A stretch of DNA of 64,000 bases. Origin: Escherichia coli. Its GTDB lineage: Bacteria; Pseudomonadota; Gammaproteobacteria; Enterobacterales; Enterobacteriaceae. Shown piece after piece: positions 36,689 to 41,368 of this stretch. Positions within the stretch are counted from its first letter, which is position 1. Every line of letters starts with the position of its first letter. The stretch is from assembly GCF_003018255.1 (NCBI RefSeq), contig NZ_CP027440.1. One strand, written 5' to 3'. Below the pieces are notes generated by a model. That model worked only from the letters and a program-made list of their open reading frames with translations. It was not told the DNA's origin and made no database searches. Both the position numbers and the translations under genes were made by a program.

Positions 36689-37678
36689 TTAAGCGTCAAC
36701 GAAACCGGTGATTTGAGAGACGCGAGAAAGATCGATATTGCCGCCGGAAATAATACTGACGGTTTTTCTGTTTTGAATATATTGGTCTAATTTACCGCTT
36801 AATAATGCAGCACATGCCAGAGCGCCTGCGCCTTCGGTGACGACTTTATTGCGCTGAATTAAGGCAATCATACTGTTTCTGATTTCATCTTCGCTGACCA
36901 GCACGATGTCATCGACTAATTCACGAACGATTTCGTAAGTTAAATTACCCGGGCGGGAGACATCACAACCATCCGCCAGGGTGCCGGTAGTTCGGTGCGT
37001 GGTTATTTCTCCGGAGTGGAAAGAAGCCGCCATGCCGTGAACGTTTTCAGACTGTACGCCAATAACACGAATGGTCGGGTTAATTGATTTAATCGCTACC
37101 GCAATACCAGCAATTAAACCGCCACCGCCAATTGGCACAATCACATTATCGACATCATAGAGATCTTCCATAATTTCCAGACCAATCGTTCCCTGGCCAG
37201 CAATCACTTTCGGATCATCGTAAGGTGGGATAAAAATACGGCCTTCCATTTCGACAATTTCGCTCACTTTAGCAATAGTGTCGTTGAAGTTATCACCATG
37301 CAAAACGACTTCTGCGGAGTAGTCGCACGTTGCCGCGACTTTGGATTTCGGCGCACCTTTTGGCATCACCACTTTACCGTCAATACCCAGCATCGCACAG
37401 GAGAGCGAAACCCCTTGCGCATGGTTGCCCGCAGAGCAGGCCACTACACCTTTACGTTTTTCCGCATCAGTCAGTGAACTTAATTTATTAAATGCGCCAC
37501 GAATTTTAAATGAACCGGTACGCTGCATGTTTTCGAATTTGAGGAATATTTCACCTTTGCAACGTTCACTAAAATAGTTGGAGCGAGGCATACCTGTTTT
37601 ATAAATTCGCCCAGCCAGTCGTTGTTTTGCTTCAATGATGTCATCAATAGCAACCGGGAGATCGTATGTAATATGCAT
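36689..37678 (-). CDS. tdcB: Catabolic threonine dehydratase (PLP)
   Basis: 329-aa ORF; PLP lysine motif SFKIRGA. Confidence 0.95.
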
Positions 37679-37776: not shown

Positions 37777-38715
37777 CTAATCAACTTCAATTAATTGCCT
37801 TCGTCTACACCCATTATAAGATGAATACTCTTTGGCTAATTCCACCAAAACCGATGCTGCTTTTTTAATACGATAATTTTTCGACCATACCGCGGCATAT
37901 TGTGCCACAGGTAATGTTTCTTCAACCGGAATAGTAATAAATTGATTAGAACCAAAAGGTGATGTCATATCACAAGGAATTACAGTTAAGAAATCAGCAT
38001 TGAGAACAAGATTATAAATTGTCACGACTGAGTCGGTTTTAACGATGTTTTCAATACTGATGCCATTTCTTTGTAACGTAGTAAGCAGCTCGCTGTAGTA
38101 CCCCATATTGGTTTGTGGCAACACCCACTGTTCGTTCTTCAACGACTCCAGCGTGGTGGTGCCGGTGCATGTTCGGGACTTACTGGCTACCAGCACAAAC
38201 TCGGACTCGAACAGCGGCTCAACATGTAAATCCTGAAGCTTCATTTCTGCGCTTAACGTACCAATCGCAAAATCCAGTCGACCGTCGCGGATTGCCGGTA
38301 AGAACGAAGACAGTTGCGCTTCATACATAGAAACCTGCGCTTTCGGGAACACCTCTTTGAACTTGTTGATCATCCCGGACATAAAAGTAAAACCAATCAA
38401 TGAAGGAAAACCAAATGAGACTTCCACCACCGCCTCAGAAGACATACCGCTTATCTCATTAACCATATTTTTCATTTCACGGGTAATGGATTCGGAACGG
38501 GAGAGTAACAATTGACCGGCAGGTGTTAATGTTACACCGGTATTTTTCCGCACCACTAACTCCACACCAAAATAATCTTCAATATCGTTAATGATTTTAC
38601 TGACGGCCGGTTGAGTTAACCCTAACTCTTTTGCAGCCGAGCCGATAGAACCACTTCTAATAACTTCCTGAAAGACTACCAGGTGCTGCGTTTTCGGAAG
38701 AAGAATAGTGCTCAT
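37777..38715 (-). CDS. tdcA: LysR-family activator of the tdc operon
   Basis: 312-aa ORF. Confidence 0.9.
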   Translation of the reverse strand: MSTILLPKTQHLVVFQEVIRSGSIGSAAKELGLTQPAVSKIINDIEDYFGVELVVRKNTGVTLTPAGQLLLSRSESITREMKNMVNEISGMSSEAVVEVSFGFPSLIGFTFMSGMINKFKEVFPKAQVSMYEAQLSSFLPAIRDGRLDFAIGTLSAEMKLQDLHVEPLFESEFVLVASKSRTCTGTTTLESLKNEQWVLPQTNMGYYSELLTTLQRNGISIENIVKTDSVVTIYNLVLNADFLTVIPCDMTSPFGSNQFITIPVEETLPVAQYAAVWSKNYRIKKAASVLVELAKEYSSYNGCRRRQLIEVD

Positions 38716-38900
38716 AACGACCTACGTTAATTACCTCATTGACGGCATGAAGTGTATCAAAATGAAATGAACAGGATATGTGCGACCACTCACAAATTAA
38801 CTTTCAATACTTTCCAGGGTATCGTTATTACAATTAAATATCTTTATATATCAATGAGTTAAAGTATAAAAATCAGCATAAACCCTGATTTTTGTCAAAA
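38716..38900 (-). promoter_or_regulatory. tdc operon promoter region with candidate CRP site
   Basis: tgtgcgaccactcacaa at 38779-38795 fits the TGTGA-N6-TCACA CRP consensus; AT-rich upstream DNA. Confidence 0.5.
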
Positions 38901-39029
38901 AAAATGACGGGGATAACCATATTTTATGGCGATAACATCATTCGTTATGTGGTTAATACAAAAAAGGGGCTGAGACCATATTTCAAGCAATTACCGGATA
39001 ATTACCAGGCAAAATTTGAGTTAAATTTA

Positions 39030-39248
39030 ATGAGCAAGTTCTCAAATTTTATTATAAATAAATCATTTTCAGTGATAAATAATGCGGCACGTCACATTTT
39101 TTCACGCTATTTGTTGGAGAACAAACATTTATTTTATCAATATTTTAAAATTTCGAATACAGGTATCGATCATCTCGAACAATTGATTAACGTCAACTTT
39201 TTCTCTTCTGACAGGACGTCATTTTGTGAATGCAATCGTTTTCCATAA
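39030..39248 (+). CDS. tdcR: Small regulator TdcR
   Basis: 72 aa from MSKFSNFIINKSF...; the ORF track offers a 118-aa extension from 38892. Confidence 0.65.
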   Translation: MSKFSNFIINKSFSVINNAARHIFSRYLLENKHLFYQYFKISNTGIDHLEQLINVNFFSSDRTSFCECNRFP

Positions 39249-39780
39249 ATTCCTCTCCCCTCATAGGCGACGAATAGCATTTTGTGTTGAGGATCACAAA
39301 ACGAATAATTGCTGGTCGCCGCGATAAGGTCAGACGAAGACAACAAGGGGGATTCTCACTGTGCTTTACATCAGCGTAGGCCATAGAATGTTGCTTCGTT
39401 GACTGTAATGCCGGGTAAATGAGCATTTTTTGATAGTGCGAAAGAACCCTGCGAGGAAAATAAGCATCTATTATTGTTTGTCATGATGACAAGGCAGGCA
39501 TCAATGAAAGGCTTCCCAATTGCACATATTTTTCACCCTTCAATCCCGCCAATGCACGCAGTGGTTAACAATCACAACAGAAATATTGATTATTGGACGG
39601 TAAAAATTTAGGTTATAACGCCCAAATGATTCAACGATCGGACAATACCTGCGAACTTACAATTAATGAGAGAAATATATGTATAATTACGACCTTTTAA
39701 ATGCAATATAGACTTAATAACTTCTTACAAAGTCTATTATTAATACCGTAGATATTCATCTTACCCTGGGCACCAAAAGC

Positions 39781-39807
39781 AAAAACCCGCCGAAGCGGGT
39801 TTTTACG
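39781..39807 (-). terminator. rnpB Rho-independent terminator
   Basis: Minus-strand aaaaacccgcttcggcgggttttt. Confidence 0.85.
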
Positions 39808-39813
39808 TAAATC

Positions 39814-40190
<377 letters not shown>

Positions 40191-40196
40191 GGCGCG

Positions 40197-40228
40197 CAGT
40201 ATAGAGGGTTTGCGCGCCCTTGTCACCC
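40197..40228 (-). promoter_or_regulatory. rnpB promoter overlapping the 3' end of garK
   Basis: Minus-strand -35 gtgaca (40221-40226) and -10 tatact (40199-40204) placed to start transcription at the rnpB 5' end. Confidence 0.6.
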
Positions 40229-41368
40229 CGCGTTGCGCATTCCAATCGCCAGTGTCGCGGCGATATTACGTGAAGCACGGCAGATATTGTCATAAGCTCC
40301 GCGGAATGCTTCGTCTAACGTACCAATGCTGGTCAATACGCTGAAGACCGCATCAATGCCATGCTGATGTACAACGCCAACATCATTGGTCAGGCTACCC
40401 GCAATGCCAATCACCGGTTTATGGTACTTTTTCGCCACGTTTGCGACGCCAATCGGAACCTTGCCGTGAATACTCTGGCTGTCAATACGCCCTTCACCGG
40501 TGATCACCAGCGTACAATCGTGAATATGTTCCTCCAGATTCAGCGCCGTAGTGACGATTTCAATACCACTTTTCAGTTCTGCACCAAGAAACGCCATCAG
40601 CGCCGCGCCCATACCACCCGCAGCTCCTGCGCCGGGGACATCTTTCACATCAACATGCAGCGCTTTTTTAATGACATCGGCATAGTGAGAGAGGTTATTG
40701 TCCAGCTCGACAATCATCGCTTCACTGGCTCCCTTTTGTGGGCCAAAGATGCGCGATGCGCCGTTATCGCCCACCAGCGGATTGGTGACATCACAAGCGA
40801 CGCGAATGACGCAATCTTTTAAGCGCGGATCGAGGCCGGAAATATCAATATCATTCAGAGTATTAAGACTACCGCCGCCAAAACCAATTTCATTGCCGTT
40901 GGCGTCGCATAATTTCGCCCCCAGCGCCTGTACCATGCCTGCGCCGCCATCATTTGTAGCGCTGCCGCCAATGCCGATAATAATGTTTGTTGCACCGCTC
41001 TCCAGCGCCTGCAGGATTAACTCGCCTGTGCCGCGTGAAGTGGTCACGAGTGGATCGCGTTTTTCCGCAGGTACCAGCTCCAGCCCACTGGCCGCCGCCA
41101 TTTCAATAAATGCGGTTTTGCCATCGCCGGAGATCCCCCAACTGGCATCCACTTTCTCGCCCAGCGGCCCTGTAACCCAGGCGTGACGTTCAGAACCCTG
41201 GGTAGCTGCAATCATCGCTTCCACCGTTCCTTCGCCACCATCGGCAACCGGAACAGAAACGTACTGTGCATCAGGAAAAATTTCCCGAAATCCTTTTTCT
41301 ATCGCCTGCGCAACCTCGCTGGCAGATAAACTTTCTTTATAAGAGTCTGGGGCGATTACGATTTTCAT
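40223..41368 (-). CDS. garK: Glycerate 2-kinase
   Basis: 381 aa from MKIVIAPDSYKESL. Confidence 0.9.
   Translation of the reverse strand: MKIVIAPDSYKESLSASEVAQAIEKGFREIFPDAQYVSVPVADGGEGTVEAMIAATQGSERHAWVTGPLGEKVDASWGISGDGKTAFIEMAAASGLELVPAEKRDPLVTTSRGTGELILQALESGATNIIIGIGGSATNDGGAGMVQALGAKLCDANGNEIGFGGGSLNTLNDIDISGLDPRLKDCVIRVACDVTNPLVGDNGASRIFGPQKGASEAMIVELDNNLSHYADVIKKALHVDVKDVPGAGAAGGMGAALMAFLGAELKSGIEIVTTALNLEEHIHDCTLVITGEGRIDSQSIHGKVPIGVANVAKKYHKPVIGIAGSLTNDVGVVHQHGIDAVFSVLTSIGTLDEAFRGAYDNICRASRNIAATLAIGMRNAG

Follow-up and report, generated by a model that had tools for sequence, protein, structure and literature searches.

The short reading frame tdcR, which lies upstream of and divergent from tdcA, is in our view best explained, with some reserve, as a genuine, young and weakly constrained gene of 72 codons that overlies ancient regulatory DNA. 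It was analysed in a stretch of 64,000 nucleotides of Escherichia coli DNA (contig NZ_CP027440.1; hereafter the window). Translation, if any, would begin at ATG 39030, and the gene would span 39030–39248 (72 codons). The 46 in-frame codons upstream would be non-coding; they would belong to the distal part of the ∼0.5-kb tdcABC control region and be stop-free in E. coli by happenstance. The ORF would have arisen in Escherichia on DNA that is non-coding in Citrobacter, Salmonella, Kluyvera and other genera, protein-level constraint would be confined to the C-terminal half, and the gene would be dispensable and frequently lost. TdcR is reported to activate tdcABC in trans. The gene and the question of its start were already known; as a side result, the present analysis makes tdcR a candidate for de novo origin on an ancient regulatory region. 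The features of the locus were as follows (window coordinates).

36689–37678, minus strand: tdcB, the gene beyond tdcA.
37777–38715, minus strand: tdcA, the gene for the divergent LysR-type activator, used as control and synteny anchor.
38892–39029, plus strand: in-frame extension of 46 codons with TTG 38892 and ATG 38904, judged probably non-coding; candidate 5′ region of tdcR.
39030–39248, plus strand: tdcR, 72 codons plus TAA, as called by PGAP in the identical strain 104 and in MG1655, and by NF008507.
39814–40190, minus strand: rnpB, followed by garK.

The segment 38700–39900 was 100% identical to strain 104 (NZ_CP029164), and a match to it was present in 5,425 of the 5,426 complete E. 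coli genomes. The divergent layout of tdcR (plus) and tdcA (minus) was common to MG1655 and every E. coli record examined; RefSeq/PGAP places tdcR at 39030–39248 in strain 104 and at the corresponding site of MG1655 (b3119, NP_417589.4). The genes yhaB and yhaC (∼1.8 kb in K-12) are deleted here, within 39300–39810, and two short pseudo-CDS remnants (39504–39605 and 39608–39670) are left. The whole 1.2-kb query was matched in 1,742 of the 5,426 complete genomes, mostly via this short yhaBC-deleted layout. Since the distance between tdcA and rnpB is only ∼700 nt in non-coli Escherichia, yhaBC was apparently inserted in the E. coli lineage and subsequently lost in part. An Rfam scan of 38600–40400 (E ≤ 1) gave rnpB (39814–40190, minus strand) as the sole match, and none in tdcR.

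The plus-strand frame that ends at 39248 encodes 118 amino acids from TTG 38892, 114 from ATG 38904 and 72 from ATG 39030. The original prediction had described it as open from 38892 (118 codons) with an internal ATG at 39030 (72 codons), and both coordinates and frame proved exact. It had also placed the beginning of the recognised protein at ATG 39030, in agreement with PGAP, with NP_417589.4 of MG1655 and with NF008507, all of which give 72 amino acids. The latter (the NCBIfam TdcR equivalog model of 72 positions) scored 169 bits (cutoff 100), with model positions 1–72 corresponding to residues 47–118 of the long frame. The 114-residue form represents an older annotation, and thousands of database entries carry the start at ATG 38904. 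The AT-richness and unusual codon usage described for the region were likewise confirmed: the G+C content was 0.27–0.35 over 38700–39300 (∼30% for the tdcR DNA) versus 0.51 for the window, the mean log2 codon probability of tdcR was −6.07 versus −5.60±0.09 for the 38 long ORFs of the window (∼5 SD lower), and GC3 was 0.33 versus 0.59. Codon usage failed to distinguish the tdcR frame from the other five (−6.05 to −6.23 for the six frames) and gave no host-like signal. With a stop probability of 0.076 per codon in this composition, an open run of 72 codons has P = 0.0034 and one of 118 codons P = 9×10⁻⁵; a stop-free run of such length is unexpected by chance in this composition.

Relatives of TdcR were searched for at the level of sequence, family and structure. 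Named protein matches were from Escherichia and Shigella only, and the remainder were unnamed metagenome fragments (72–100% identical). When 1.84 billion representative proteins were searched exhaustively with a HMMER profile, 7 hits were obtained, mostly short and partial (23–98 aa); there was no full-length homologue or distinct family among them, and three were already among the Escherichia hits. No Pfam family was found in TdcR at E ≤ 1, a sub-threshold BESS motif being present in the non-coding extension only, and a sequence search of the PDB gave no relative. AlphaFold2, run on a 12-sequence alignment, returned a model in which no residue reached a pLDDT of 50 (mean 40.8), which is uninformative and provides no confident fold. 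A DNA-binding domain or fold recognisable as that of a helix-turn-helix-type transcription factor was thus found by none of the three approaches (Pfam, PDB, AlphaFold2). Among the papers searched, none was found that links tdcR with the terms orphan or de novo.

The origin of the frame was examined in the DNA upstream of tdcA, which was fetched via the TdcA anchor from one genome per species and complemented with ten diverse E. coli records. The records labelled as Bacteroides MAG, Chryseobacterium sp. and uncultured Clostridium sp. had E. coli-like or Enterobacter-like tdcA loci, and probably reflect contamination or mislabelling. In outgroup DNA (Citrobacter, Salmonella, Kluyvera, Raoultella and others; tblastn and nucleotide alignments) the E. 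coli frame carries 1–6 stops, those at E. coli-frame codons ∼38 and ∼59 being common to Citrobacter, Salmonella and/or Kluyvera. That these two stops are shared between genera speaks against an ORF in the ancestral sequence. With an ORF found only in Escherichia, over homologous non-coding outgroup DNA, tdcR would therefore be a young gene, plausibly born de novo.

The DNA itself is older than the frame. From the tdcA start codon to ∼39310 it was homologous in 20 non-Escherichia taxa (including Citrobacter, Salmonella, Raoultella, Kluyvera, Yokenella and Trabulsiella as well as Lelliottia, Enterobacter, Pseudocitrobacter, Cedecea and Leclercia), with strongly conserved blocks and variable spacers between them. 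Shorter conserved blocks were also present inside the tdcR ORF in this 20-taxon alignment. The elements were the following (no strand assigned).

38779–38794: CRP-type site TGTGCGACCACTCACA in the promoter of the divergent tdcABC operon, one mismatch to TGTGA-N6-TCACA, identity 0.85–0.91 across genera.
38885–38937: block A, CTGATTTTTGTCAAAAAAAATGACGGGGATAACCATATTTTATGGCGATAAC, with a palindrome (CCATA-TTT-TATGG) and a direct repeat of GATAAC, covering the first 15 codons of the extension.
38976–38995: block B, CCATATTTCAAGCAATTACC, inside the extension, identity 0.74–0.83 to non-Escherichia sequences.
39220–39242: block containing a TGTGA half-site; it overlaps the final 9 sense codons of tdcR, which encode part of the RTSFCECNRFP tail.
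39283–39298: CRP-type palindrome TGTGTTGAGGATCACA, one mismatch to the CRP core, 35 nt 3′ of the tdcR stop.

Block A was 0.66–0.96 identical to the 20 non-Escherichia genera or species; positions 38871–38937 were invariant in 11 E. coli sequences, and 38913–38937 were unchanged in every Escherichia lineage sampled. The block at 39220–39242 varied hardly at all within Escherichia, E. albertii included, and could be recognised in the ORF-less Citrobacter, Salmonella, Lelliottia and Enterobacter, and the palindrome at 39283–39298 was conserved in nearly all genera aligned. Both were found in Citrobacter, Salmonella, Kluyvera, Lelliottia and others that have neither tdcR nor yhaB. We infer that the blocks are protein-binding sites, with TdcA as a candidate for block A. 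The site at 38779–38794 we take to be the tdc CRP site reportedly described by Wu, Patil and Datta in 1992; the candidate binders of the conserved blocks, from work of the Datta laboratory, are TdcA, IHF and CRP. The 46-codon extension is, on these comparative grounds, probably non-coding and a distal part of the upstream control DNA of tdcABC, which is conserved and constrained in its spacing.

Substitutions within Escherichia were used to assess selection on the 72-codon ORF. Over the whole of tdcR, 21, 23 and 21 sites were variable at codon positions 1, 2 and 3, respectively, and the Nei-Gojobori dN/dS was 0.42–0.67, the same as in both off-frames. For the tdcA control, dN/dS was 0.006–0.04, with a dS of 0.36–0.49 against the four more divergent non-coli Escherichia and of 0.11 against the clade-I strain MOD1-EC7003. 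Two features within the ORF were as follows.

39102–39104, plus strand: codon 25, TCA here and TAA in the JJ1886 (ST131) type, where PGAP calls a pseudogene with an internal stop.
39126–39194, plus strand: codons 33–55 (HLFYQYFKISNTGIDHLEQLINV), the part of the ORF best conserved within Escherichia, assessed by pN/pS.

In the lineages with an intact ORF, pN/pS for codons 33–55 was 0.18 in frame versus 1.59 and 1.42 in the off-frames, and for codons 62–72 it was 0.11; the two blocks combined gave 0.16 in frame versus 1.12 and 1.80 off-frame. For codons 1–32 and 56–61 the value was 0.83, and the N-terminal 32 codons evolve neutrally. The signal in the C-terminal blocks is based on ∼11 unique variable sites (p ∼0.01–0.07, binomial estimate). 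Because the number of sites is this small and the block of codons 62–72 overlaps a DNA element that is conserved in ORF-less genera, the signal for purifying selection is suggestive and not conclusive. These values thus suggest that protein-level constraint is present only in the C-terminal half (codons 33–55 and 62–72). The lineages with a disabled ORF (SCPM8794 and E. albertii) carry extra replacements in both blocks. A DNA-level element at 39126–39194, based on over-conserved synonymous sites, was considered and rejected (P = 0.12–0.96 for the counts). The original prediction had called the coding status uncertain; this doubt was justified for the neutral N-terminal half and is weakened for the C-terminal half by the frame-specific synonymous excess.

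Broken alleles of tdcR are common. An exact 45-mer with TAA at codon 25 was present in 558 of the 5,426 complete E. coli genomes (∼10%), SCPM8794, of a cryptic clade, has a stop at codon 51, and in E. albertii the ATG is changed to ATA and the central block is scrambled. Judged from these genomes, tdcR is dispensable and often lost.

The main alternative, which we hold to be rather unlikely, is that tdcR is a chance or proto-gene ORF in H-NS-bound, AT-rich, conserved cis-regulatory DNA of tdcABC, and that the reported "activator" effect is exerted by the DNA in cis or by multicopy titration of a silencer. Non-coding DNA would account for the substitution pattern of the whole ORF and the neutrality of its N-terminal half, for the conserved blocks that span the region in ORF-less genera together with the shared stops at codons ∼38 and ∼59, for the lack of a domain, confident fold, frame signal or strong Shine-Dalgarno sequence in the searches described, and for a nonsense allele in 10% of the complete E. 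coli genomes. Published data point the same way. The spacer between tdcA and tdcR figures both among the regions bound by RNA polymerase and marked by H-NS and among the "promoter islands" (PMC3946193, PMC3661553). Antisense to tdcR, Adams et al. 2021 (PMC7815308, supplementary file 2) record a region of Rho termination at MG1655 3,267,523, which corresponds to about 39173 of the window, minus strand, and implies antisense transcription across tdcR. IS5 insertions that recur in the spacer, and a point mutation there, are adaptive in evolution experiments in the mouse gut (PMC7518454); by our own coordinate conversion, such IS5 insertions would part the core tdc promoter from the upstream DNA.

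What speaks against a non-coding tdcR is the frame-specific synonymous excess in codons 33–55 and 62–72. In a neutral simulation the ORF stayed intact with odds of only 0.17–0.32 per lineage, yet four non-coli lineages have kept it (MOD1-EC7003, E69 and the sister lineages E. whittamii and E1V33). In E. albertii the start codon and the block designated B1 decayed together, and at 30% G+C a 72-codon open run is improbable. Moreover, Schweizer and Datta in 1989 and Hagewood and colleagues in 1994 reportedly described trans-activation of tdcABC and mutagenesis of the start codon. We continue to favour a genuine, weakly constrained gene.

Several further observations concern the same DNA. The mutations reported at positions 3265132 and 3265168 convert, if these are NC_000913.2 coordinates, to about 38758 and 38794 of the window (our own tentative conversion); these sites would be the core tdc promoter and the upstream edge of its CRP site, and the IS5 insertion, at about 38794 and just upstream of that CRP site, would cut off all upstream DNA including tdcR. 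A promoter-like sequence, TTATCA-16-TATAAT, is present on the minus strand at 39078–39051. Position 3,267,523(−) was also considered as an antisense transcription start 61.5 bp from the TGTGA block and was rejected, the caption of the file specifying a Rho-termination region. Scanning for sigma-70 promoters and terminators revealed no convincing plus-strand promoter upstream of tdcR, with 6 promoter-like sites versus 4.7±1.7 in shuffled sequences. RNA folding of 39100–39260 on both strands and of the start region gave no structure signal (z = +0.19, +0.91 and −0.50). Transcripts of tdcR have been quantified by qPCR in a CoPEC (colibactin-producing) strain (PMC12143686).

Should tdcR be translated, comparative data indicate that the start is most likely the annotated ATG 39030. 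In the Escherichia alignment this ATG was the only start kept across species; it was present in E. coli, the clade-I-like MOD1-EC7003, E69, E. whittamii, E1V33 and SCPM8794, and was ATA in E. albertii. TTG 38892 had become TTA in every non-coli Escherichia lineage sampled. ATG 38904 was absent from E. whittamii, E1V33, SCPM8794 and E. albertii, was displaced by one base and out of frame in E69, and was retained in frame in the clade-I strain MOD1-EC7003. A 1-nt deletion at 38958, found in four of the five non-coli lineages that lack an in-frame ATG 38904, puts the extension out of frame with the 72-codon ORF. Within E. coli, 100 of the 5,426 genomes carry a 1-nt deletion near 38934 that leaves the 72-aa ORF intact, and the TdcR that PGAP annotates in E. 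coli with this deletion is still a complete 72-aa protein with the K-12 sequence. No strong Shine-Dalgarno sequence was found at any candidate start of tdcR. The best, though weak, was that of ATG 39030 (UGAG, spacing 8, −2.2 kcal/mol; −7.0 kcal/mol for tdcA and tdcB), and TTG 38892 and ATG 38904 had no match (+0.6 kcal/mol each). A 10-bp inverted repeat, AAAATTTGAG ... CTCAAATTTT, at 39011–39050 flanks ATG 39030 and would sequester the only Shine-Dalgarno-like GAG; the predicted hairpin was no more stable than shuffled sequence (z = −0.5), and the four more divergent lineages of non-coli Escherichia differed at 39041, in its right arm.

Conservation of the start and frame, the frameshift near 38934, the best Shine-Dalgarno match and the curated annotation thus all argue for ATG 39030. 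Hagewood and colleagues reportedly mapped the transcription and translation starts of tdcR in 1994, which is said to be the source of the 72-aa annotation. The uncertainty about the true start that had been noted originally was real in that there are two candidate starts, and it can largely be resolved, most likely in favour of ATG 39030, by conservation, frameshifts, Shine-Dalgarno scoring and annotation. Of the checks proposed with it, scoring of ribosome-binding sites favoured 39030 over both upstream starts, and conservation of the upstream 46 codons showed that start codons and frame are lost in other Escherichia while the underlying DNA blocks are conserved. Direct initiation data were sought in the literature: no ribosome-profiling or N-terminomics record for tdcR was found, and the supplements of the TRAINSPOTTER N-terminomics and ROSE data sets did not contain tdcR.

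It is very improbable that the long product is the real one in E. coli, with 114 aa (ATG 38904) or 118 aa (TTG 38892) and a truncated 72-aa annotation. Of the 11 E. coli sequences aligned, 10 have all 118 codons open (P = 9×10⁻⁵ for such a run, as above), the 114-aa form stands in thousands of database entries, which derive from older gene calls, and a sigma-70 promoter (TTTAAA-16-TATAAA, window-equivalent 38843–38870) has been predicted in K-12 upstream of both starts (PMC3946193). However, neither upstream start codon is found outside E. coli and clade I, and neither has a Shine-Dalgarno match; in four further Escherichia lineages and in the 100 E. coli genomes a frameshift disrupts the extension with the 72-aa ORF unharmed, and the curated models are of 72 aa. 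Moreover, codons 1–15 of the extension coincide with an invariant DNA element that ORF-less genera also have, and, at a stop rate of 0.076 per codon, the last 31 codons of the extension would be stop-free by chance with P = 0.09.

Equally doubtful is a product of only ∼44–45 aa from TTG 39111 or 39114, comprising just the constrained C-terminal half and making the codon-25 nonsense harmless: constraint does start at codon 33 after seemingly neutral codons 1–32, TTG-TTG at 39111–39116 is invariant in Escherichia, and the nonsense allele of 558 genomes lies upstream of both, but TTG is a poor start codon, neither site has a Shine-Dalgarno match (+0.7 and +1.8 kcal/mol), and ATG 39030 is conserved in every intact-ORF lineage. 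We know of no experimental support for such a form of TdcR.

Overall, the consequences for annotation are small, since RefSeq and NCBIfam are already at the 72-codon start and the comparative data agree. The broader implication concerns TdcR as a regulator. A "transcriptional activator" listed in textbooks is a genus-restricted orphan without a recognisable DNA-binding domain, half of which is neutral. Since it is also interrupted by a nonsense codon in ∼10% of the complete E. coli genomes, databases of regulatory networks may be too confident in listing TdcR as an established transcription factor. Tentatively, one may go a step further and regard tdcR, rather than as an ancient regulator, as a de novo Escherichia ORF on a ∼0.5-kb tdc control module, conserved across Enterobacteriaceae, that extends from the CRP site at 38779 to the CRP-type site ending at 39298, in which much or all of the action ascribed to the "TdcR protein" may be that of DNA (in cis, through H-NS, or by titration). 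If so, the frequent loss of tdcR in ST131-type E. coli, E. albertii and a cryptic clade would be that of a proto-gene still on trial and, if confirmed, tdcR would offer a tractable bacterial case of gene birth inside conserved regulatory DNA.

Compared with known systems, the tdcR of the window is the same gene, in the same place, as that of K-12 (b3119, UniProt P11866, NF008507/PRK11424), with 96% identity over 72 aa. Three residues differ and the function is no different; the strain differs in the deletion of yhaBC downstream. The region resembles the H-NS promoter islands, among which it is listed and with which it shares antisense transcription ended by Rho. Most promoter islands are considered to be horizontally acquired, whereas the tdcA/tdcR region is vertically conserved across Enterobacteriaceae and has no excess of promoter-like sites. 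With orphan and de novo bacterial genes tdcR has in common that it is short, AT-rich, restricted to a single genus and atypical in codon usage, with weak and uneven constraint, and that the syntenic outgroup DNA has no ORF and contains shared disabling stops. Unlike most de novo candidates, tdcR has a published genetic function, and it would have arisen in conserved regulatory DNA and not in a neutral spacer.
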